Virus record (IMG/VR): IMGVR_UViG_2841770359_000005
Location: 804 to 64,803 of that record
Direction: 5' to 3' (one strand)
From: a virus
Taxonomy: Duplodnaviria > Caudoviricetes
DNA: 64,000 nucleotides
Position 1 is the stretch's first letter. Every line of letters begins with the position of its first letter. A program made the position numbers and the translations under genes. A model generated the notes under the pieces. That model was not told the DNA's origin, did not search any database, and saw nothing but the letters and a program-made list of their open reading frames with translations. Positions 16,568 through 62,628 of the stretch are shown piece after piece.

Positions 16568-17479
16568 TCATGCACCTGCCCCTTCTGCTTCTGCGTTGAT
16601 GGCAATACCACAGGCCTTGCGCTCAATCAGGAAGGTATCTGTGTAGTAGCGGTTCTGGTATACATATTTGTCAGCCGTCCTGGAATCAGAACCCGGGGTA
16701 AACAGCTTCATGTAGGCATATTTATCACGGCTGATCACACAGGAAGGATGTACCAGAATCATATTAATCTGTTTACCGTCTGCAGCCGGTACGCATCCAG
16801 TAGTGAAGTCATACTTTGTCTTAAACCTTGCGGAAGGCACTGTTTTGATCGCCACATCATCCAGGCCATGTACACGGCGGTCAATCACCCCGGCAGCCCC
16901 GGCATTAATTGCCCTGGTAATTCCATCCGCACTTTTCAGGATTTTATTGATTGCAGACGTCACATACAGCACACGGCCTTCCTGCGGTACGGATTTGTCA
17001 TCCATAATCGCCATCTGCTCGTCAAACCACTCCAGGATATTGGCTGCCGTCAATACCGTATTGTCAATAACCGCTCCCTGCCCTGCGTATGTTTTGGCTT
17101 CTGCATACAGCTTTGAGAATCTATAGCTATCCTTTTCCGGAATAGCCTGCTCCTCCTCAAATACATTCTGGATATTTGCCATCTCAGTGACAAGGTTAGT
17201 CTCGTCAATGTCCATCGGGTCAATCGGGATCTCAATATCCCTGTCATGGGTAAGTTTCTTCGGCTCCCAATCGTTGCTTACTGTTCCGGCATTGAACCCC
17301 ATTGTATTACGATTGTGGTCTTTATACCCCGATACGGTCAATCTTGGGATTTTAATCGTCTGGGCATTCAAAAACTTGATGCCCTGGTTAGAGAGTGTAA
17401 GATCGTTAGATACCAGTTCTCTCGTGTACTTCTGCGCAAGCTCGCGCATGAATAATTCTGCATAATCATATACTGCCAT
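16568..17479 (-). CDS. Major capsid protein
   Basis: 303 aa after scaffold; TIKIP, HDR....DPMD.DET and PE.D.YRFSKL motifs. Confidence 0.9.
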   Translation of the reverse strand: MAVYDYAELFMRELAQKYTRELVSNDLTLSNQGIKFLNAQTIKIPRLTVSGYKDHNRNTMGFNAGTVSNDWEPKKLTHDRDIEIPIDPMDIDETNLVTEMANIQNVFEEEQAIPEKDSYRFSKLYAEAKTYAGQGAVIDNTVLTAANILEWFDEQMAIMDDKSVPQEGRVLYVTSAINKILKSADGITRAINAGAAGVIDRRVHGLDDVAIKTVPSARFKTKYDFTTGCVPAADGKQINMILVHPSCVISRDKYAYMKLFTPGSDSRTADKYVYQNRYYTDTFLIERKACGIAINAEAEGAGA

Positions 17480-17493
17480 AATTCTTTATCTCC

Positions 17494-18141
17494 TTATTTT
17501 TTATTGCCAAAAATAGCCGATAACTGGTCATTCTGGCTCGTCTGCTGTTGCTGTCCGGAAGCCCCTACCTGTACAAAACCCGTCTGCCCTGCCGGTGCAG
17601 GTTTTAAAGCCGGAACATCCTCCAGGACCTTATTTAAGGCCGTTTTCATAGCTTCATCGTTGATTTTCCCATCCTGTCCCATAGCCTGGCTTAAATCGGC
17701 CATTTTGAGGACATATGGGATAGTTTTTGCGTCAATCCCCAAGCCGACTGCCGCCATAGTGGCCGCTGCCTGTACCTGTGCCTGCTGTGCTGCTGCCTGG
17801 GCCTGCGCCGCCTGTGTCTGCAGTGCATTCACATCTGGCTGCTGTGCTGCCTTTTGCTCTTTAAACGTTGCAATGGCCTGTTCAACTTCCTGTTGGCTAA
17901 GTCCCTGCTGTTTAAAGTATGCCTTCAGGGCCGTGTCTTCTTTTGCGGACAAAGTGCCCTCCAGCATTGTCTGGATCTTATTGTAATCGATCTGCGGCGC
18001 TGTGGGTGGCTGTGCCCCTGCCTGCTGGGTCTGCTGGCCGTCTCCTGTTCCTCCGCCTCCTGCGGCCCCACCGTCTCCGGTCCCAGGCTCTGCAAAAAAC
18101 TGTAAATCCATAGGTAATATACATCTAAATTTTTTAAACAT
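17494..18141 (-). CDS. Capsid scaffolding protein with N-terminal Prp-type cleavage motif (DLQFF/A)
   Basis: Helical Q/A-rich protein before capsid; MDLQFFAE. Confidence 0.85.
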   Translation of the reverse strand: MFKKFRCILPMDLQFFAEPGTGDGGAAGGGGTGDGQQTQQAGAQPPTAPQIDYNKIQTMLEGTLSAKEDTALKAYFKQQGLSQQEVEQAIATFKEQKAAQQPDVNALQTQAAQAQAAAQQAQVQAAATMAAVGLGIDAKTIPYVLKMADLSQAMGQDGKINDEAMKTALNKVLEDVPALKPAPAGQTGFVQVGASGQQQQTSQNDQLSAIFGNKK

Positions 18142-18248
18142 GTAATTTCTCCTTTCCATTTTGAGGGTGTCACCCTACAATCCATTGTCATCGGTGTCAC
18201 CGGCCACGCATCTTTTTCAGCCATATCGTGTTTGGGCATAAAAATAAG

Positions 18249-18298
18249 GCAGCTTCACCCCGCCGCCCAGAGGGAGATTCAGGATCACCGCCTTTCTA
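18249..18298 (-). promoter_or_regulatory. Conserved 50-bp cis element (extended SD-like tract plus GC-rich structure), copy 1
   Basis: 49/50 identical to 60005-60054; contains GGATCACCGCCTTTCTA on +. Confidence 0.75.
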
Positions 18299-18334
18299 TC
18301 TGCCCTTGCCTTTCTTACCACCTTTACATGCCAT
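18296..18334 (-). CDS. 12-aa K/G-rich micro-ORF MACKGGKKGKGR
   Basis: AGGAGGTGA RBS; homologous micro-ORF at 60052-60096. Confidence 0.6.
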   Translation of the reverse strand: MACKGGKKGKGR

Positions 18335-18378
18335 ATCGCTCACCTCCTTTATTGCGCCGGCGCAAATAATTGGATACA

Positions 18379-18410
18379 AAAATACCACCTGCCATTTCTG
18401 ACTGGTGGTA
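18379..18410 (-). terminator. Hairpin plus U-tract after the immunity gene
   Basis: TACCACCAG...CAGGTGGTATTTT on minus strand; near-identical copy at 60847-60877. Confidence 0.6.
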
Positions 18411-18656
18411 TCATGATGCCCTGCATACTTTTTCTGGTATTTCTCCTTGTTCAATTACCCTGGCAAGTTTACTGTGTGCCAGAAGAGTATCCGCGCTGCC
18501 TATTGCTGATTCTTTTATGATTTCATATTCATGCCTGGGGTATTGTAATGACAACTTTATCTTACCATCCAGGTTGTCCATGCTGTCCCCGTATCCATAT
18601 ACCACATACTTATCAGTCTTTTCCAATAAGCTCATGCAGATTATCGGTCTCGCCAT
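18411..18656 (-). CDS. Putative immunity protein for the MuF C-terminal toxin
   Basis: 81 aa, GGAGG RBS, overlaps the 3' end of the minor capsid gene. Confidence 0.55.
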   Translation of the reverse strand: MARPIICMSLLEKTDKYVVYGYGDSMDNLDGKIKLSLQYPRHEYEIIKESAIGSADTLLAHSKLARVIEQGEIPEKVCRAS

Positions 18657-20499
18657 ATTCCCCCGCCTCCTTTTCCAGTAATCCATTCCAATCATGCTTT
18701 AGTGTCGTTCTATCATGTGCTTCCCTATATGTTAAATTATACTTCATTTCAACTACGCTTTCAAGGTATTCGTGCTTCAAAAGCATAATATCCCTATCCA
18801 GATAATCCCCGTTTATAAGACGCTGCCACGCTACAGCCATATTATAATCCGCATCAAAGCGCCTTATGCCGTCATCCAAAATGTGTTTATTGAGAAAAAC
18901 ATGCTGTTTGATGCGTGCTATACTGTACTCTGTCCATCCAATACTCTTGGCAATGGCCCTAACATCATCATTTGTTGACCGCATAGCATCATAATAGCTT
19001 TCGGCTTCGTCATCACGGCGCAGTGTCCATTCTACAGTTCCCCTGTCATATTTTCCACCTGTGGACTTAAATAATTTTGGATTATCCGGAATACCTCTAG
19101 TCTTCTCTCTGCTGTAATCCCGTCTTAATTCCGGGTGTCTATCAAGATGTACCCTGAGTTCTTCCTGATATCTTCCAACCTTCTCATTCGCATAACTGAC
19201 ATTTTCCGGACTGAGGCTGCCCTCTGCCTTCCGTTTCCACTTTCTGATCTTGCGCTCAAGCGCCCTTTGCTGTTGCTCTGCATTATAAGTGCCTATGGCC
19301 TTATCCTTGTCTGGGATCTCTGGTGGTTTTGTGATGCCAGGAAAATATGTTGCAATCGTATGTCGGCAGTTTGGATGGAGCAGACCTGCTTTCATAGCAT
19401 CGGACAAAAGCGGTATGCCCAGCTCCTTAGCCTCTTCAGGCGTCCCGTGACAAAATACATCATCTACAAGCACTTTTCCCTGCCAGGGCGCGCATAGGAG
19501 GCAGGTGTTGGCATGAGCGGATACGACTACTGTATGTATCCCCCACTCATCTCTCTTTTTTCCTTCCCCTAACAGTACCGCCCGCTGCGATGCGGTCCGT
19601 AAAGCCATTTCTGCGTAGCTGGCTATATTTACCCGACGGCCATTCCGATACTCTATACAATCAATACCAGCCGCCAGAAACTCTTTGGTCGCCATATCAA
19701 CAGCCTGGTCAAGTGTCTTGGCCCCTGCAGCCATGTTCATTCCGGCCCGGTAAATGGTACGCCTATAAATATCGTCCATTCGACGCCACACAGCCTTTTG
19801 GGCCTCTCTCATATCATTTACGACTTGCCCTGACATATTATCTAGCTTCTTATCCTGCATAGCCTCAGGAAGAGGTTTTTCTTTTCCATCAGGGTGGAAT
19901 GGCTCGCTGATTTCTTGGGGTTCCTGTCCTTCCACTTTCTTGTCAGGCGGTTCTGCCTTCTGCTCTTTCGGTGGTTCCAGCCGCTCCTCTGACTTTTCCA
20001 CTGCCGGGACCTCTTTCTGGGGCTCTTGCTTTTCCTCTTTCTGTGGTTTTGCCTTTTCTGCTTCCTCCTGCATAACTTCTATCTTATTTCTATTTACACC
20101 GAAAAAATCCTGTTCAGCAGGTGGAGGTGTTGACAGCTTGTGGTGTGCAATACTTTTAGGGAATTTAACCCTCTTTCGCTTAGAAAATGTAGATTCTATC
20201 CTGTCCCAAATTCGGTTAAATAAATTCTGTCCACGATGGTAGTTATCTTCCAAGGCCTCATTTACAATCCGCTCCACTTCAGGACTTATCTCATCTACAA
20301 TCTTCTTACTCTCTCTGCGGTATTTTTGTAAGTTTCGTAGCTTTGCCCTCTGCCACATTTCCCACCGAAACCCCTCTTCTTCCTCTTCCCGCTCATGGCG
20401 TTTCAGGTTACGGCGCAGGCTTCGTGCCAGATCAAGCTCCATCTCCTCAAATATACGCCGGAGATTATATGCATCATCCTCCCGCTTTTTATCAGACAT
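18613..20499 (-). CDS. Minor capsid (MuF-like) protein with C-terminal toxin-like extension
   Basis: C..C.PWQGKV and GLLHPNCRH motifs; extension with RFDADY..A.AWQRL..G...LLKHE..E...AH. Confidence 0.8.
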   Translation of the reverse strand: MSDKKREDDAYNLRRIFEEMELDLARSLRRNLKRHEREEEEEGFRWEMWQRAKLRNLQKYRRESKKIVDEISPEVERIVNEALEDNYHRGQNLFNRIWDRIESTFSKRKRVKFPKSIAHHKLSTPPPAEQDFFGVNRNKIEVMQEEAEKAKPQKEEKQEPQKEVPAVEKSEERLEPPKEQKAEPPDKKVEGQEPQEISEPFHPDGKEKPLPEAMQDKKLDNMSGQVVNDMREAQKAVWRRMDDIYRRTIYRAGMNMAAGAKTLDQAVDMATKEFLAAGIDCIEYRNGRRVNIASYAEMALRTASQRAVLLGEGKKRDEWGIHTVVVSAHANTCLLCAPWQGKVLVDDVFCHGTPEEAKELGIPLLSDAMKAGLLHPNCRHTIATYFPGITKPPEIPDKDKAIGTYNAEQQQRALERKIRKWKRKAEGSLSPENVSYANEKVGRYQEELRVHLDRHPELRRDYSREKTRGIPDNPKLFKSTGGKYDRGTVEWTLRRDDEAESYYDAMRSTNDDVRAIAKSIGWTEYSIARIKQHVFLNKHILDDGIRRFDADYNMAVAWQRLINGDYLDRDIMLLKHEYLESVVEMKYNLTYREAHDRTTLKHDWNGLLEKEAGEYGETDNLHELIGKD

Positions 20500-20501
20500 T
20501 T

Positions 20502-22052
20502 TTACTCACCTGCTTTCGGTGGTTCTTCTTCCTTCTTTGAATCCTGAGGTGGCTCTTGTAGTGGTTCCTGTATTAATCCATCCAGTCCCGCAACACTGGG
20601 TTCATCTGTCTCCATAAGGCCCTGCTCTTTTTTCAGGCGGTCAATCTCTTCTTGTTTACAGTGTTCATCCAAAGAATCACCATAAAGCTCTTCTACGCAC
20701 CTTTCAATGCTCATGATTCCCTGGGTCTTTGCCTTGCCTATGGTCTCTACCTGGCTTTCAAAGCTCGGGTTGGCGTATTCCCCAAATGGGATCTCCACCT
20801 TCACCTCCTCAAGCTGCTCCCGCATCAGGATATGGTAAGCGTTGATACAGGCAGACACCAGCTCCGGCAACGTCTCCTGCAGGGCCTCTATAATCGCATC
20901 ACGGGTATATAGAGTGGCCTTCTCTTTTTCGCGCTGTGCCTCTGCGTTATCCAGCTTTTTGACATCAATCCCCAAAGTACTGGGAGAAATGACACCCTGT
21001 AGGCAGAGATCCAAGGCTGTCACGTAAGTCGCCAGATAGCTGTCATGGGGGATTACTGGCTGTACCGTCTCGATAATGTTTTTCTGCCCCTCCCTCATGT
21101 CCCCGTCCGCGGCATAATAACGACAGTCAAATGGGTTTGGCTTGATGAGCTGGCCCGTCGAGGGGTCATGCGGTACCAGGCACTCCGGGATGTATGTCTT
21201 TGCCCGGCCCGCCCGGAGCGCATCCATCCATTGGCTCCATGCCTCATCAAAGGCGTCGAAGCTATCTAACTTACCATCAAAAATAGAGCCTCCGCGGCCC
21301 TCATATTTTGTATTCTCGTATATCTGCAGCGGCACCGCCAGAATGACAGTTTTATCAAACACCACATCCTTGATGTTTTTTGTCGCATCAATAGCAGTAA
21401 GCGGAACCTCATTCTCACCCCGGTATAGATGATTGTTGATATATCCATATCCATAATGCTCGTGGAGCACGTACTGCTGGGTGCCCACTGTATAGGGCGT
21501 TTTAAACACAACTTCTTTGAGCCGTCCATGCTGCCACATGATTTCTATTTTTTCTCCCGGATACCACTCTAGGAGAGGATACTGGCTGACTTCTGTGTCA
21601 ATCGTAATCTTGTATGCCCCATCACCAATGTACAGCACCTCTTTCAGGGACTTTTCAAATTTCTTACGGAATTTGTTGTCCTTTTCTATTTCCTCCCAGA
21701 GTTGCTTGTGTGTGTCCTTCTCAAACTCAAAATCATTCATGTCGGCCACGACAATGCTATTGAGTGTCCGTACGATCAGGCCGGGAAGGCCGGTATGAAT
21801 CTTGCGCATATCCATTCCCGGGCTGCATCGGCTAGCCCAGAATTTTGTTTTATCCACATACTCTGGATTCTGCTGATACATTTGTTCTAGCTCATTTCCG
21901 TCACCACGGTACCAGATCCGGTTTCGGATTGCGGACAGTTCAAAGTCCATCACCTCATTGATCTGTATGGCATAAGGCTGTGCTGGCTGTACTTGTAACC
22001 AACTTCGCAATCCTTTCTTGATATTGTCACTCAATTTCTGTGTCCACCTCAT
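20502..22052 (-). CDS. Portal protein
   Basis: 516 aa between TerL and minor capsid; G.ISPSTLG motif. Confidence 0.85.
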   Translation of the reverse strand: MRWTQKLSDNIKKGLRSWLQVQPAQPYAIQINEVMDFELSAIRNRIWYRGDGNELEQMYQQNPEYVDKTKFWASRCSPGMDMRKIHTGLPGLIVRTLNSIVVADMNDFEFEKDTHKQLWEEIEKDNKFRKKFEKSLKEVLYIGDGAYKITIDTEVSQYPLLEWYPGEKIEIMWQHGRLKEVVFKTPYTVGTQQYVLHEHYGYGYINNHLYRGENEVPLTAIDATKNIKDVVFDKTVILAVPLQIYENTKYEGRGGSIFDGKLDSFDAFDEAWSQWMDALRAGRAKTYIPECLVPHDPSTGQLIKPNPFDCRYYAADGDMREGQKNIIETVQPVIPHDSYLATYVTALDLCLQGVISPSTLGIDVKKLDNAEAQREKEKATLYTRDAIIEALQETLPELVSACINAYHILMREQLEEVKVEIPFGEYANPSFESQVETIGKAKTQGIMSIERCVEELYGDSLDEHCKQEEIDRLKKEQGLMETDEPSVAGLDGLIQEPLQEPPQDSKKEEEPPKAGE

Positions 22053-39245: not shown

Positions 39246-39326
39246 TGCGGATAACAGGACTTGAACCTGCACGTCGTAGACACCAGAACCTAAATCTGGC
39301 GCGTCTGCCAATTCCGCCATATCCGC
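39246..39326 (-). tRNA. tRNA-Leu(TAG), intact; probable attachment site of prophage 1
   Basis: GCGGATA/TATCCGC acceptor stem, TGG D-loop, CCAGA-TTTAGGT-TCTGG anticodon arm, long variable arm, GTTCAAGTC. Confidence 0.95.
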
Positions 39327-58136: not shown

Positions 58137-59174
58137 TTAACCATTTGTAATTAGGCGTGCCATCGGAATTGTTTTCGGATCAAATTTAATATCCCAATTT
58201 GCCTTTGCAAAAAGCTGGGCATCCGTCGGGGACTGGGTCCAACCAGAAGACGGGACCTTAAAGCTAAATCCGTTTGGATGTAAAGTCTCCCGCATCCTGG
58301 TGATGAGTTCATCCTGGCCGCCGTTCTTTTTAGCTTCACGGTTAGTCTCCACGGGCACGTCCACACGCCCCTTGGCCGTCCTTATGACACCAGCCCCGAA
58401 CAGATAGGTAGTGTACTTTTTAAGGTCTTTGTTCGCCCCCTCTCCTCCAACAGCTTCGCATGGTACACCATCATCAATGATCACCGTATATCCGTTGGCA
58501 GAGCCCATGTTCATGGGACGCTGGATGCCATTCGCATCCGTATACTTCCAATATTCCAGAAGCTGCTTATTTTCTAATGTTTTTGCCACATTGGAATGCA
58601 TAATAGCAAGACCGAACTGGTCTTTGTGATCTCCACACGCCAATGTAGCAAGGTCATTTAAGTCCGTCTCCTCAATAACCCTGGCGTTTGCTGTGTCAGA
58701 GCCGAGGTTCAAGCTGTGGGTCTCTGTCCATTTCTTTGCATGTCCGCTGGACCCAGTGATGTCAAACACCGCATTTGTGATCCCGATCATGCGCATCTGG
58801 CGGCGTTTCTGCCAATATCTTGCGATAGTAGCAACAATATGACCCATAGGGTCAGCCCCTGAAAGTTCTGCTGTAAAGTTCCGGGCAAAGAATCCTTTTG
58901 CACGCCCGTATACAACACCGGTCTGGGAACCGCCTCCTACCTCTGTCACGGTAATATCGGTCTGTCCGTCATAGTTCTGGTCGTCGCCATCCAGCGTATC
59001 GTAAAATGGGATGGTGTAAATGTTTCCGCTTGTCTGAATCATGCCTGATATTGTCGGGTCCTCAACTACAGCTCCGGATTCAATCATAGCTGTGAGATAC
59101 GGGTCTGGAGCCTCATTCCACATCTGTAAAAATAATTCCTCGTCAAACGGAATTCCAAAAATCGTTCCTGGCAT
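58137..59174 (-). CDS. Major capsid protein
   Basis: 345 aa after scaffold; G.DPM, MHS.V, HP.GFSF. Confidence 0.88.
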   Translation of the reverse strand: MPGTIFGIPFDEELFLQMWNEAPDPYLTAMIESGAVVEDPTISGMIQTSGNIYTIPFYDTLDGDDQNYDGQTDITVTEVGGGSQTGVVYGRAKGFFARNFTAELSGADPMGHIVATIARYWQKRRQMRMIGITNAVFDITGSSGHAKKWTETHSLNLGSDTANARVIEETDLNDLATLACGDHKDQFGLAIMHSNVAKTLENKQLLEYWKYTDANGIQRPMNMGSANGYTVIIDDGVPCEAVGGEGANKDLKKYTTYLFGAGVIRTAKGRVDVPVETNREAKKNGGQDELITRMRETLHPNGFSFKVPSSGWTQSPTDAQLFAKANWDIKFDPKTIPMARLITNG

Positions 59175-59191: not shown

Positions 59192-59881
59192 TTATTTCCC
59201 GGATAACTGCCTGTACAGCTCCGGATCATCTGTTTTAAGTTTAAGTCTTTCTGCATACCCCATCTTTGAGTATTCATCCTTAGTTACTGCTTTTGTTTCC
59301 GGCGCTTTAGTTGGAGGCGTACTTCCTTTCAATCTTTCATATACAGCCGTCTCTAATATCTCATGAAAGGCTTTCTCGACTGTAGCAATAGATTTATTAC
59401 AAGAATCTTCATCTGTGTAATCAAGCACCTCCGCAAGTCCCACTGGCAATTTCTTTTCTGCCAAAGTATTCTTTGCATCCGCCATAAGTTCCCGACGCGT
59501 AATGCCTGCTTCACGTTCTGCCAGCTCTTCCTCGCGCTTCTTCACAAGATACTGTGCTTTTTCTTCCTTAGTCATCCGGTTCAGTTTATCAGCCTCAGAC
59601 AACTTATCATCTGTGAGCGCCTGCCACTTTTCCTGTGCTTTTCCTACCGCTGTATCAATAGCCTTCTGCACGCGCCTGTCAAATTCTGCTTGATGACCGC
59701 CTTTCAGTAAATCATCAAAAGATGGCGGCTCTGTGCCATCGTCTCCTCCAGTTCCGCCTTCTCCTCCTTCAGCTCCGCCGCCATTGCCACCATCGGCCCC
59801 GGCACCGTCTCCTGGTTCTGCAAAAAACTGTAAATCCATCGGTAAGGCACAACATGCAAATCTAAAATACTTATTTCTCAT
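59192..59881 (-). CDS. Scaffolding protein (DUF4355-like) with Prp-type DLQFF/A motif
   Basis: EFDRRV.KA, coiled coil; MDLQFFAE. Confidence 0.85.
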   Translation of the reverse strand: MRNKYFRFACCALPMDLQFFAEPGDGAGADGGNGGGAEGGEGGTGGDDGTEPPSFDDLLKGGHQAEFDRRVQKAIDTAVGKAQEKWQALTDDKLSEADKLNRMTKEEKAQYLVKKREEELAEREAGITRRELMADAKNTLAEKKLPVGLAEVLDYTDEDSCNKSIATVEKAFHEILETAVYERLKGSTPPTKAPETKAVTKDEYSKMGYAERLKLKTDDPELYRQLSGK

Positions 59882-60004
59882 CTTTCTATCCTTTCCGCCC
59901 CAGCCCATTCATAAGCCCAGGCCATTGCTATAGTTTTAGGCCATTCCGGGCGCAAAAATAACGCCCAGGATAACCTGCGCGTCTCTCAGTTATATCTTTT
60001 ACAA

Positions 60005-60054
60005 GCAGCTTCACCCCGCCGCCCAGAGGGAGATTCAGGACCACCGCCTTTCTA
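60005..60054 (-). promoter_or_regulatory. Conserved 50-bp cis element, copy 2
   Basis: 49/50 identical to 18249-18298. Confidence 0.75.
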
Positions 60055-60096
60055 CTTTCCTTTGCCTTTTTTGCCGCCTTTTCCTTTACAAGCCAT
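60052..60096 (-). CDS. 14-aa K/G-rich micro-ORF MACKGKGGKKGKGK
   Basis: AGGAGGTGA RBS; homologue at 18296-18334. Confidence 0.6.
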   Translation of the reverse strand: MACKGKGGKKGKGK

Positions 60097-60109: not shown

Positions 60110-60502
60110 TTACTCTTTTTCTGTTACAGTAAATGGTACGATAGATTCTGGTATGTAATTCACTTCGTATTTATATTTATTTACTTTTGCGCCGCCCAGA
60201 TCTTCAATGACATACATTGTATTCTCATTCAGTCCAATGATATGTTTCTTATAAGTGCCATCTTCCATTTCACAGATAATACTTATTTTTTCCTTGTCCG
60301 TTGCATCAAGTGAAAATGCACCGATTACTTCAAATTCAACTTTATCCGTCCTGGAATTAATCACTGCAAATCTCCTAAGGACATTAAAATTGTCTGCTTC
60401 CTGTGACACATTATTGGATACTTTATTGGCTTCCGTACATCCGACCACTGTCATGCACACGATGATAAACATTGCAACAGCAACTCCCAGTTTTTTTCTC
60501 AT
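60110..60502 (-). CDS. Phage lipoprotein
   Basis: Signal peptide with lipobox VVG-C. Confidence 0.75.
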   Translation of the reverse strand: MRKKLGVAVAMFIIVCMTVVGCTEANKVSNNVSQEADNFNVLRRFAVINSRTDKVEFEVIGAFSLDATDKEKISIICEMEDGTYKKHIIGLNENTMYVIEDLGGAKVNKYKYEVNYIPESIVPFTVTEKE

Positions 60503-60518
60503 GCCTGCTCTTTCTCCT

Positions 60519-60800
60519 TCATCCCACTTTCTCATGGGTCATGCAAAAAATCCGCGGATCACATGGGTACAGTTCCCCATAAATACCGCGTATGATGTAA
60601 TCACCCACTTTCGCATGTACCCGGCCTCCCGGTGTCATGATGGTACAACCGTAAACATGCATATGTCCGTCTAACAGACTTCGATCAATACAGACTTTTC
60701 CGTCTTCCACAGCCCGGGTAAACCATTCAGGTGCAATTCTGTCTGGATCATCTGTAAGCCTGAAGGCTTCAATCTCTACGTGCTTCTTCCTATATCTCAT
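60519..60800 (-). CDS. PGDYG-like phage protein
   Basis: YRKK.V.IEA...GDYIIRG..GE.YPC.P.IF. Confidence 0.75.
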   Translation of the reverse strand: MRYRKKHVEIEAFRLTDDPDRIAPEWFTRAVEDGKVCIDRSLLDGHMHVYGCTIMTPGGRVHAKVGDYIIRGIYGELYPCDPRIFCMTHEKVG

Positions 60801-60876
60801 CTTTCTCACCTCCTTCGTTGCGCCGGCGCAAATAAAAATGAGTATAAAAATACCACCTGCCATTTCTGACTGGTGG

Positions 60877-61053
60877 TTATTCTTCCGATGTACGCAAAAC
60901 TTTTTCAATGTCGTCAATCGTAATACTGATTGTCTCCCAATCTTTAGGGGAGCTTCCAACATCAGCAATGAATGCTTTGTTCTCAAAGACCTCCATGATA
61001 GACGCTGTCCTGCCATCCTTTAAAAGCACCGTATCAAATTCTTTAATCCCCAT
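60877..61053 (-). CDS. Putative immunity protein (DUF4926-like), 58 aa
   Basis: Own translation MGIKEFDTVLLKDGRTASIMEVF...; GGAGG RBS, starts right at the MuF stop. Confidence 0.7.
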   Translation of the reverse strand: MGIKEFDTVLLKDGRTASIMEVFENKAFIADVGSSPKDWETISITIDDIEKVLRTSEE

Positions 61054-62628
61054 TTATACCTCCTTGATATATGCACTTGACATTGATATAGACCCATCAG
61101 GCTTATGCATCCATCCAACAATAACATTTGCAGGCATTCCATTTTTACCATATATGACCATCTTCTGTTCATACCGGTCTCCATACCCATTATTGTCCTT
61201 AAAAGCGGCTGGATATTTTAAAGCCCTATATTTTATCTCATTCTGCAGTTCCTGCCAATTGTTTATATCATACCCTAACCTGGATGAAAATGCTTGTCCC
61301 TTTGCCAGCCCTTCCGGATATACGCCATCGAAAATATATTTTGTGAATTTTGCATCTGGAACAATAGCGTTCTCTGCATTCGGAAGTTTTTGTTCTGGAT
61401 GCCCCGCCAGCTCATTCCGTCTCTTATAATCCAACTTCGCGTATTTCCATTTCTCAGTTTCATTATACTTCATATTTTGGAAATCATCCAGTGTTTCCGG
61501 GATATCTGTACCGAGAATTTTCTTGTACTTATGGTACTGCGCCCTATCGGAAGAACGATTCTGAATCTTCTTTTCTTCCAGCTCCACCTCCGGCTTGCCC
61601 TTGACATACTTGTCATACCACTGCTGATATGTCATGCTCCTGGGCACCTTGATACGCTTACCCGTGGCAGGGTCAATGGCAGAACGCTGCATTTTCTCAA
61701 TCAGTGCCCTGTCTACTACGGATATTGTGGTTGACCGGCACCAGGGATGCATCGGAGGACAGTTTTTCCCGATCTGGCGTTCCTTCACCAGGAATATCTT
61801 CCCATCTAGTACTCGGCAGATTTTTGAGGTTCTGAGGTCCAGGGTTGCAAGATATTGATATTCTTTAATCCCACATTCTTGATAAGCCCTAAAGTTCATC
61901 TCCGTTGACACATAATTACTTTCCGTTCGCACAAGCCTCCTGGCATTGCTTGCTCCCTGTCCAAACTTATTGGCAATGATAGCAGCAGCTTCCCGGTTTG
62001 TACGGCCTGTCACCAGGTTGATAAGCAGTTCCTCTTTCAGGTCCTGGGCCAACATTTGCGTATTACCCCAGATACGTTCTGAGTAGTTTTTTCCGGACCA
62101 CCTGCTATTAATCACCTGATCTATGACTCTGGCTGATACGTGTCCGAAGGAAAAAGCTGCATCTGCGCGCTGCTGGATATTATATATACTCCGGTAGTAG
62201 GAATCGCTGGCAAGACCAGTATAGAAGTCGGCGCTTATGAGTTTTTCCTGCTGGTATACATTCGCCATAATCACATCAAGCTGTGACTGTATCTGTCTAA
62301 GTCGTTCCAGCCTTGCCTGATACGCCGGTGCCTCCAGTTTTGACAAAAGCTGACGTTTTGATTCGTCCTTATCACCACTTCGCAGCTTCTGCAGGAGTTC
62401 ATCCAGTGACGTCCTATCCTGCATGGTGCTAATCAGTTGTCTGGCCTCTGTCTCTGATAACTCATGCTTTGTTTTATATCTCTCAAAGACATCATCAGCC
62501 TGCGAAGAAAGATATCGTGATGATTTTAAATATAGGTTTGCTATCTGGTCAGCGGCGCCCTCCGCTTTCTGGAAGATGTTAAAGGCATCCTGTACCTGCC
62601 TCTGCTCCCAATAAGCACTACTCTTCAT
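61054..62628 (-). CDS. MuF minor head protein with C-terminal toxin-like domain (DUF6883-like)
   Basis: RLVRTE, ATLD.RTS.IC, PPMHPWCRS; extension LPNAENA.VP..K..Y...KG..F...LGY. Confidence 0.85.
   Translation of the reverse strand: MKSSAYWEQRQVQDAFNIFQKAEGAADQIANLYLKSSRYLSSQADDVFERYKTKHELSETEARQLISTMQDRTSLDELLQKLRSGDKDESKRQLLSKLEAPAYQARLERLRQIQSQLDVIMANVYQQEKLISADFYTGLASDSYYRSIYNIQQRADAAFSFGHVSARVIDQVINSRWSGKNYSERIWGNTQMLAQDLKEELLINLVTGRTNREAAAIIANKFGQGASNARRLVRTESNYVSTEMNFRAYQECGIKEYQYLATLDLRTSKICRVLDGKIFLVKERQIGKNCPPMHPWCRSTTISVVDRALIEKMQRSAIDPATGKRIKVPRSMTYQQWYDKYVKGKPEVELEEKKIQNRSSDRAQYHKYKKILGTDIPETLDDFQNMKYNETEKWKYAKLDYKRRNELAGHPEQKLPNAENAIVPDAKFTKYIFDGVYPEGLAKGQAFSSRLGYDINNWQELQNEIKYRALKYPAAFKDNNGYGDRYEQKMVIYGKNGMPANVIVGWMHKPDGSISMSSAYIKEV

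Follow-up and report, generated by a model that had tools for sequence, protein, structure and literature searches.

A widespread pseudoknotted RNA motif with a 16S-tail-complementary tract upstream of phage head scaffolding genes

The DNA considered here (the window) is a stretch of 64,000 nucleotides (nt) of a Caudoviricetes provirus record, IMG/VR IMGVR_UViG_2841770359_000005, positions 804 to 64,803, which contains two head modules, referred to as phage 1 and phage 2. Between the minor head gene and the head scaffolding gene of each module lies one copy of a short motif, all of whose features are on the minus strand (Table 1). It is a cis-encoded, sense-strand RNA motif of the late head genes that occurs once per phage, immediately upstream of the scaffold leader, and it is made up of a tract complementary to the tail of 16S ribosomal RNA (an 8-nt box, GGUGAUCC, in most cases lengthened by GAAAGG or GGAGG), a near-invariant AUCUC sequence 3–6 nt further on, and an H-type pseudoknot. 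Comparison of 142 unique variants gives good support to the view that the motif represents a widespread class of structured RNA with two covarying helices, and that this class is absent from Rfam.

The portal and capsid proteins of the two phages are unrelated at the level of BLASTP, as an earlier sequence-only reading of the window had supposed (BLASTP E 0.19 for the capsids and 0.031 for the portals, no significant similarity), and their scaffold proteins are alike only at the N-terminus (15 of 20 residues, ...LPMDLQFFAEP). A blastn comparison of one half of the window with the other returned four matches in all, of which one covers part of the motif and the micro open reading frame (micro-ORF) that precedes it (18249–18325 with 60005–60081, 89.6% over 77 nt) and another a block composed of a hairpin, a palindrome and a Shine–Dalgarno (SD) sequence (18339–18409 with 60805–60877, 89% over 73 nt). 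The latter block lies ∼700 nt further upstream in phage 2 because two genes are inserted there, encoding a phrog_419-like protein (60519–60800) and a protein of Pfam family Phage_VG64 (60110–60535), and the SD sequence is duplicated at this place. The 50-nt blocks 18249–18298 and 60005–60054 are identical at 49 of 50 positions, in agreement with the coordinates and peptides given by the earlier reading, and the one difference is GGTGATCC versus GGTGGTCC in the box. This near-identity is best read as cassette exchange. Metatranscriptome contigs of runs X2–X4 (one study) contain a close relative of phage 1 in which 125 other letters, with another version of the motif (…TATCTCCCTTTGAGACGCGGGGTGATGCGT…), replace 18249–18337, so here too the element appears to have been exchanged as a cassette.

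Table 1. Coordinates of the two head modules, the two motif copies and the associated features within the window
Feature	Coordinates	Strand	Remarks
Phage 1 portal	20502–22052	minus	phrog_533
Phage 1 minor head protein	18613–20499	minus	
Phage 1 94-aa gene	18411–18695	minus	directly upstream of terminator-like hairpin 18378–18410
Terminator-like upstream hairpin + T run	18378–18410	minus	after 94-aa gene; fold −17.6 kcal/mol, z −4.5
Palindrome TTGCGCCGGCGCAA	18352–18365	minus	after upstream hairpin; within block common to 60805–60877
Phage 1 micro-ORF MACKGGKKGKGR	18296–18334	minus	ATG 18334–18332, TAG 18298–18296; SD AAAGGAGGTGA 18340–18350
Motif copy 1, whole	18228–18299	minus	covariance model R1 72.9 bits, E 3.6e-16, model positions 1–72
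Copy 1 16S-complementary tract TAGAAAGGCGGTGATCC	18282–18298	minus	includes micro-ORF TAG stop 18296–18298
Copy 1 invariant box GGTGATCC	18282–18289	minus	inside 16S-complementary tract
Copy 1 AUCUCCC box	18272–18278	minus	CCC 18272–18274 = 5' strand of pseudoknot
Copy 1 hairpin	18248–18267	minus	GGCGGC 18262–18267, loop GGGGTGAA 18254–18261, GCTGCC 18248–18253
Copy 1 pseudoknot pairing	GGG 18258–18260 with CCC 18272–18274	minus	covariation in relatives
Copy 1 U tract TTATTTTTAT	18238–18247	minus	after hairpin
Phage 1 head scaffolding gene	17494–18141	minus	phrog_2303, E 9.6e-52; 148 nt downstream of box
Phage 1 capsid gene	16568–17479	minus	phrog_422
Phage 2 minor head protein	61054–62628	minus	three small genes between it and micro-ORF
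Phage 2 micro-ORF MACKGKGGKKGKGK	60052–60096	minus	ATG 60096–60094, TAG 60054–60052
Motif copy 2, whole	59982–60055	minus	R1 47.5 bits, E 1e-09
Copy 2 parts	tract 60038–60054, box GGTGGTCC 60038–60045, AUCUCCC 60028–60034, hairpin 60004–60023	minus	
Copy 2 separate terminator hairpin ACGCGCAGG/CCTGGGCGT + TTATTTTT	59954–59982	minus	fold −15.5 kcal/mol, z −2.05
Phage 2 head scaffolding gene	59192–59881	minus	164 nt downstream of box; member of alignment A2
Phage 2 capsid gene	58137–59174	minus	phrog_247

The consensus of the motif, ∼60 nt in length, reads (U/C)AGAAAGG(C/A)-GGUGAUCC, 3–6 nt, AUCUC and two bases, 2–5 nt, a hairpin of 6–8 bp with the loop (N)NNG-U-N-A(N), and UUAUUUUUAU. A covariance model (R1) was built from 100 unique sequences with the hairpin as its sole structure, and its E-values are rough. 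On both strands of the 64-kb window it detects exactly two sites, which are copies 1 and 2, and over the 100 sources (922,684 bases, both strands) it gives 101 matches, one per source and the second window copy. When loci were chosen by capsid homology alone, 80 for the capsid of phage 1 and 74 for that of phage 2, full-length R1 matches were present at 19 and 33 of them, respectively (52 of 154 together), and every motif copy derived in this way shares the strand of the capsid gene and directly precedes the scaffold gene; the same motif elements often stand there with or without the micro-ORF. Other relatives of both window phages have at the same place only the 3' half of R1, which is a plain terminator. 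A gapped pattern scan found at least 114 stretches in viral contigs and at least 120 in genome contigs. The element that had been noticed in two prophages is thus shared upstream of scaffold and capsid genes by the capsid-derived loci and by more than 100 further viral and Clostridia contigs, and, since both its hairpin and its pseudoknot covary (see below), an absence of conservation or covariation in other phages is not what was found.

Among 80 genome loci tested with R1, 50 score at least 29 bits, and these are titled Clostridia or Bacillota bar one contig labelled Prevotella; the genera and species include Dorea, Blautia, Lacrimispora, Anaerocolumna, Anaerosporobacter, Eubacterium callanderi and Anaerotignum. 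Among the 80, those loci from other phyla that fit the pattern score below 28 bits or receive no R1 score. An even sample of the family of Blautia producta gave R1 matches of at least 69 bits in 5 of 150 other genomes, and a sample of its phylum gave none at that score in 150 genomes. The only cultured phages that match are the Anaerostipes phages AC844P1–P3. A head scaffolding gene follows the motif, at a distance of 73–181 nt in nearly all contexts: when 119 unique downstream proteins were compared with PHROG, the nine families with the most matches all bore a scaffold annotation (2303 with 64 members, 172 with 58 and 194 with 30), and for alignment A2, to which the phage 2 scaffold belongs, families were counted by members rather than assigned to each one.

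A search of the whole window against Rfam 15 found only a transfer RNA (tRNA) reaching a gathering threshold, and at E ≤10 on 18100–18450 the best relevant model was RF01867, whose 10.8 bits fall far short of its threshold of 75. Apart from RF01867 (Caulobacter sRNA CC2171), no Rfam model gives any alignment to the tract (region 18100–18302, minus strand), and the start of its consensus, GAAAGGAGGUGAUCCAG, is likewise a full complement of the 16S 3' end. A full-text literature search found no description of the motif; the text of a paper on 224 motifs (PMC5737381) contains neither the term 'scaffold' nor 'capsid', and its supplements may list further motifs.

Both helices of the element show compensatory change. 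In alignment A3 (101 rows, model-guided) the hairpin has double-sided changes in six of six pairs with 98.2% of cells paired, none of 500 shuffles reached the observed covariation score, slid controls collapsed, and RNAalifold on a MAFFT alignment independently predicted the same stem. The sequence-only reading had also proposed that the G-rich loop pairs with the upstream ATCTCCC as a pseudoknot, and the relatives bear this out. An automated count on A3 gives 92.5% paired and double changes in two of three pairs, with short-loop rows scored as unpaired because they are shifted by one column. A parse anchored on the loop G followed by U or C, and blind to the upstream strand, was applicable to 141 of 148 unique rows; both variable pairs form in 139 of the 141, the pairs fall into six classes (CC/GG 111, GU/AC 12, GC/GC 7, GG/CC 4, GU/GC 3, CU/AG 1), and none of 10,000 shuffles reached the observed paired count. 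Where the upstream strand is not CC, 28 of 29 rows pair with their own loop and one of 29 would pair with the majority loop; two of these rows (L294 and L304) are chance-level matches, and with both excluded 27 of 27 pair. The loop therefore pairs with a strand outside its own hairpin and does so through compensatory changes, and the geometry (S1 of 3 bp, L1 of 2–3 nt, S2 of 6–8 bp, L2 of 0–1 nt and L3 of 3–4 nt) would fit a classical H-type pseudoknot. Folded as single sequences, the two window copies do not stand out (z −0.40 and +0.16). In the minimum-energy folds of the window and of L032, AAAGGCG pairs with the 3' strand of the hairpin as an antiterminator helix would, but this helix was rejected as it is lost in variants with other linkers.

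It might be supposed that the block has no function of its own and is a junction sequence, a linker between modules spread by recent phage recombination, with the window copies as a swapped cassette. The identity of the copies between unrelated flanking proteins would agree with this, as would the metatranscriptome contigs in which another motif version stands in place of this stretch and the finding of the micro-ORF cassette with both capsid types. However, the motif is known in 142 unique variants, which differ in spacer length and show compensatory changes in both helices, and these point to selection on RNA structure and not to descent alone, and this covariation makes the junction explanation very improbable.

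The tract that precedes the pseudoknot matches the 3' end of 16S ribosomal RNA. The 16S genes of two motif-bearing host genomes (not the host of the window itself) end ...GGATCACCTCCTTT, then CTA, and the copy 1 tract is complementary to this gene end, GGATCACCTCCTTTCTA, at 16 of 17 positions, which confirms the match that had been drawn from the usual Firmicute sequence. The predicted duplex of copy 1 with the 16S tail has an energy of −25.2 kcal/mol and that of the box alone −13.9 kcal/mol, so the flanks supply about half of the duplex energy; the tract is the strongest predicted 16S-tail site within ±2.5 kb. It is likewise the strongest in 100 of 100 contexts, with a mean predicted energy of −25.9 kcal/mol versus −10.9 kcal/mol for the scaffold gene's own ribosome binding site and −19.3 kcal/mol for the best other 22-nt window within ±2.5 kb. 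Of the 30 unique capsid-derived sequences, 24 have GGTGATCC as the box, three GGTGGTCC, one GGTGATTC and one GGTGATCA, and one has a deletion, the variants GGTGGTCC and GGTGATTC retaining G·U wobbles with the 16S tail, and ATCTC is present in 29 of the 30. In 112 of 141 variants GAAAGG (at least five of six bases) precedes the box, at a distance of 1 nt (73 variants), 3 nt (16) or 4 nt (23), and most of the remaining variants have GGAGG directly before the box. The base that faces the central U of the anti-SD sequence is C in 71 and A in 59 of 141 variants.

AUCUCC is one base off the AUCACC of 16S, and its predicted pairing in cis with the box amounts to only −3.2 to −7.6 kcal/mol. Such a cis helix covers at most five of the eight box bases whereas the 16S pairing covers all eight, and GGUGAU/AUCUCC pairing was accordingly rejected as the sole cause of the invariant boxes. 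Copy 1 has no ATG, GTG or TTG 1–14 nt after the box, so that, as had been claimed for it, the tract is without a start codon at the spacing of a ribosome binding site. In about half of the variants (76 of 142 in one count, 72 of 145 in another) an NUG triplet is found 12–14 nt after the box; its U and G match the needs of the stem base (U-A and G·U pairs), and the ORFs that it would open are 3–112 codons long and unconserved. Readings of GGCGGTG and CUCCCUUU as ops/RfaH-like and boxA-like sequences, which go by resemblance only, were set aside; many variants are without GGC before the box.

What reaches the tract from upstream is variable. The two micro-ORFs (12–14 codons, K/G-rich) are each preceded by AAGGAGGTGA, and together with the structured element they had been taken for a conserved leader-peptide module whose peptide might also condense DNA. 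The structured element stands, through its spread and covariation, but the micro-ORF does not: the MACK... form occurs in 5 of 142 unique motif variants, in which both capsid types are represented. Across 105 unique contexts the upstream neighbours belong to several unrelated families. In 57 of these an upstream ORF has its stop codon at −14 to +2 relative to the box, in three reading frames, with the TAG of UAGAAAGG at −9, a TAA or TAG abutting the box, or the UGA within GGUGAUCC; in 18 the ORF traverses the block and ends in the hairpin, and in 30 there is no upstream ORF of at least 30 aa. Since the upstream ORFs are unrelated, their stops varied and the micro-ORF rare, it is the nucleotide sequence that is conserved and not any peptide, and a DNA-condensing micro-protein is left without comparative support. 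Nor is there the conserved short leader ORF, controlling an overlapping terminator, that marks a leader-peptide attenuator. The micro-ORF is an accessory upstream ORF outside the conserved motif, an incidental one, and one of several ways to end translation within the tract.

Translation of the block itself (through TAG read-through, a frameshift, or an AUC or NUG start), or a function of the micro-ORF peptide, is barely credible as the reason for its conservation. Loci of the L032 type have CAG for TAG, and there the upstream ORF continues through the block (…QKGGDPKSPVEA); the NUG triplets could also be cited in its favor. However, spacers that vary by 1–3 nt would break any frame, upstream ORFs stop in the tract in three frames, and neither the NUG ORFs nor the micro-ORF is conserved. 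The specific candidates (TAG read-through, the +1 frame and an AUC mini-ORF) were rejected on the varying spacers, the three stop frames and the unconserved stop of the mini-ORF.

Several of the upstream genes recur. The commonest gene directly upstream of the motif (L028, L032, L118, L162–L225 and others) encodes a small protein of ∼58–75 aa with …KVKCIKRYSD…ERA.HL…GVAE… or MKIRVIHDFYDKENDL…, and a second recurrent family ends in …GDTVQFNGRRLSVERR with the TGA inside GGTGATCC as its stop codon. In two viral contigs (L002 800–980 and L003 4040–4220) a shortened minor head gene is fused in frame to the micro-ORF (…YVKGKPEVAGATKEVSSMACKGKGGKKGKGK, then a stop); a deletion with one end in the palindrome seems to have brought this about.

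Downstream of the tract every variant holds a terminator-like sequence. The hairpin of copy 1 is itself terminator-like (site 18268–18247, 7 pairs, 5 of them G-C, tail TATTTTTATG), a feature that the earlier reading had not noted, and a U tract stands directly after the hairpin in 137 of 142 unique variants, the others being window copy 2, L002, L088, L100 and L104. In copy 2, where the hairpin drew no terminator-like call, a separate terminator sits about 20 nt past the pseudoknot hairpin; a separate canonical terminator is found 20–25 nt downstream in three folded cases (window copy 2, L031 and L100), and the downstream tails of L002, L088 and L104 show the first part of a sequence of this kind. 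Judged by the usual signature, a G+C-rich hairpin and then a U tract, the hairpin is a predicted intrinsic terminator, or is followed by one within about 25 nt, in every variant examined, copy 2 by virtue of the terminator that follows it. In each of the 142 variants, the way from the 16S-complementary tract to the scaffold gene leads across a terminator-like hairpin with a U tract. As the terminator is separate in the exceptions, the pseudoknot module is separable from it, yet the module is never found without one.

One could take the element for no more than an elaborated terminator or 3' end, in which pseudoknot and purine tract improve termination at the weak hairpin or protect the 3' end of the upstream message, or from which a terminated 3' fragment, as a small RNA, titrates anti-SD tails in trans. 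Relatives with plain terminators at the same place, the short hairpin (6–8 bp) with its loop of 6–8 nt, and the conserved U tract are all as this would have it. It leaves unexplained both the exact match of the tract to the 16S tail and the persistence of the pseudoknot beside a separate strong terminator, and is on these grounds quite improbable.

A small pseudoknot joined to a terminator is also the layout of several riboswitch classes. The element could then be a riboswitch-like or protein-binding aptamer in which GGUGAUCC, AUCUC and the loop G-U-N-A make up a pocket; a small molecule, or a conserved protein of host or phage, would bind there, stabilise the pseudoknot and thereby control the terminator, and the 16S match would be a by-product of a cis helix of SD/anti-SD type. 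Invariant bases that look unpaired do adjoin the covarying helices, and in L031 and window copy 2 the pseudoknot hairpin lies apart from the terminator as an aptamer does from its expression platform. However, all eight box bases, the GAAAGG or GGAGG flank and the two wobble-type variants fit pairing with the 16S tail, while the cis helix is weak and explains at most five of the eight; no Rfam aptamer matches, and the downstream genes are not those of ligand metabolism or transport but encode scaffold proteins of several unrelated families. An aptamer seems decidedly unlikely on this evidence.

There is some reason to think that the tract acts on the terminator. The reading to which we incline, tentatively and at a little short of an even chance, is that a dock for the 16S tail is coupled to the terminator and would set read-through into the scaffold–capsid message, protect that message, or both. 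The tract would dock a 30S subunit or a ribosome through the anti-SD tail, and the ribosome would often arrive by way of an upstream ORF that ends within the tract. Through its resemblance to the 16S AUCACC, AUCUCC may compete weakly in cis for the box, and at its 3' end it doubles as a strand of the pseudoknot; by this dual role, occupancy by the ribosome, sequestration of the box and folding of the pseudoknot and terminator could all be coupled. Docking would then change the fold of the terminator region, and the element would set how much transcription passes the terminator of the accessory/minor-head unit into the scaffold–capsid message. A docked ribosome and the pseudoknot may in addition shield the read-through RNA from 5'–3' decay. 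In this model a bound ribosome could bring either more or less termination.

A simpler proposal, which goes back to the earlier reading and which we consider unlikely, is that of a pure 5' stabiliser without a role in termination, in which a 30S subunit parked on the start-less SD tract and the pseudoknot would block 5'–3' exonucleolytic decay. The predicted duplexes make the tract far stronger than real ribosome binding sites, and the head genes in greatest demand begin 73–181 nt downstream of it. There is precedent in Bacillus, where strong SD sequences without a start codon stabilise the RNA downstream of them (PMC3997798); the reference list of that report includes titles on the cryIIIA STAB-SD and the SP82 polypurine 5' stabiliser. 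One contig from an RNA run reaches from the scaffold gene across the motif to the gene before it, and may represent either DNA or read-through. However, with a terminator between the tract and the genes to be protected in all variants, only read-through RNA could benefit, which is a poor fit with simple 5' stabilisation of the downstream message, and known stabilisers do not need a pseudoknot with a covarying loop.

Several points weigh against the coupling of a ribosome dock to the terminator. A dock upstream of a terminator is unlike the layout of the known stabilisers. In Firmicutes the coupling of translation to transcription is generally held to be poor, and this weakens any model of translation-coupled antitermination. 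The many relatives with only a plain terminator at this place indicate that the remainder of the motif is a dispensable add-on. It is odd for a pure ribosome dock that the A at the centre of the SD core is most often replaced by C, and with an NUG after the box in about half of the variants the term 'start-less' is not strict. Finally, at the loci derived from the pattern scan the box and ATCTC are invariant by construction, and the unbiased sample is that of the 30 unique capsid-derived sequences.

A bolder form of the coupling is doubtful but can be stated. The element might be a ribosome-sensing riboregulator, for which the free 16S 3' tail, of a 30S subunit or of a ribosome that has just terminated, would be the 'ligand' of a pseudoknotted terminator; transcription of the scaffold and capsid genes of Clostridia phages would be gated by the free translational capacity of the host, with the AUCUCC mimic of the anti-SD sequence as the switch arm. 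If docking does occur, the motif would be a widespread phage RNA device in which the ribosome is the input to a terminator or stabiliser that gates the late genes of heaviest expression, and it would offer a ∼60-nt handle on late-gene stoichiometry in phages of gut Lachnospiraceae as well as a portable part for tuning expression in Clostridia. To our knowledge almost nothing is known of late regulation in the phages of gut Lachnospiraceae. As the motif marks the start of the scaffold–capsid unit, it can be used to annotate the head modules of prophages.

The leader between the motif and the scaffold gene has features of its own. Scaffold leaders (in the window at 18192–18202 and 18164–18176, minus strand, and in L008–L275) contain small hairpins of the form NNN-(A/U)GACA-NNN, the stems of which covary over 3–5 bp (GTG/CAC, CGG/CCG, TGC/GCA, GGG/CCC and others). 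WGACA sites with at least three flanking pairs number 79 of 106 in 103 unique leaders versus 35 of 827 in a downstream coding control, and 28 leaders have two or more; these hairpins may constitute an operator for an RNA-binding protein. Both scaffold proteins of the window (18085–18141 and 59825–59881, minus strand) start ...LPMDLQFFAEPG, and many relatives have (M/L)N(L/I)Q(L/F)FA. An F/A site is common to ribosomal protein L27 and to the capsid and scaffold of phage 80alpha and is cleaved by the host protease Prp (PMC5744158); judged by its sequence, the N-terminal FA of the scaffold proteins is a putative site of this Prp type.

Elsewhere in the window, a sigma-70-like promoter (18736–18764, minus strand; TTGAAA, 17 nt, TATAAT; 11 of 12 positions) lies inside the end of the phage 1 minor head gene, and the 94-aa gene, with this promoter upstream and a strong terminator hairpin downstream, has a moron-like layout. 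No sigma-70-like promoter was found between the motif and the scaffold start in either window copy. A tRNA gene (39246–39326, minus strand, 56.8 bits) lies between the two head modules and may mark the junction of two prophages inside the single provirus record.

Several known systems resemble the element in part. The STAB-SD of cryIIIA and the SP82 stabiliser of Bacillus are likewise start-less, SD-like, 16S-complementary tracts ∼100–180 nt upstream of a highly expressed Firmicute or phage gene, and window copy 1 possesses just such a tract without a start codon. Unlike these, the tract here is centered on GGUGAUCC, on the 5' side of the anti-SD tail, often with C for the central A, and has a covarying pseudoknot attached and an intrinsic terminator downstream of it. 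Small pseudoknot riboswitches of the preQ1-I type share the compact H-type pseudoknot of ∼35–45 nt, the invariant loop bases and the joined or merged terminator; in contrast, the loop here pairs with an upstream strand and not with the 3' tail, Rfam gives no match, scaffold genes lie downstream, and the likely partner, to go by its complementarity, would be 16S ribosomal RNA instead of a metabolite. As in ribosome entrapment by S15 on Escherichia coli rpsO, an SD tract close to a pseudoknot could hold a 30S subunit without productive initiation, but the rpsO pseudoknot spans a real start codon and its effector is the gene's own protein, and here no start codon is conserved. The calicivirus TURBS also places a stop codon beside an rRNA-complementary motif that could retain a terminating ribosome; it is located upstream of a stop/start overlap and serves reinitiation nearby, whereas the next gene here is 73–181 nt away and past a terminator.

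In phage SPP1, ORFs 8–10 lie between the minor head and scaffold genes and the late clusters are described as delimited by stem–loop terminators (PMC6316719). Terminators that close such moron or accessory genes share with the motif its genomic position and its hairpin with a U tract; what the motif has beyond these plain terminators is its 16S-complementary tract, AUCUC box and pairing of the loop in a pseudoknot. In its presumed workings the element comes closest to STAB-SD stabilisers and to small pseudoknot riboswitches that have a terminator as their platform. It belongs to neither class, because it departs from them in where the terminator is placed, in which part of the anti-SD tail the box faces, in its pseudoknot and in its gene context.

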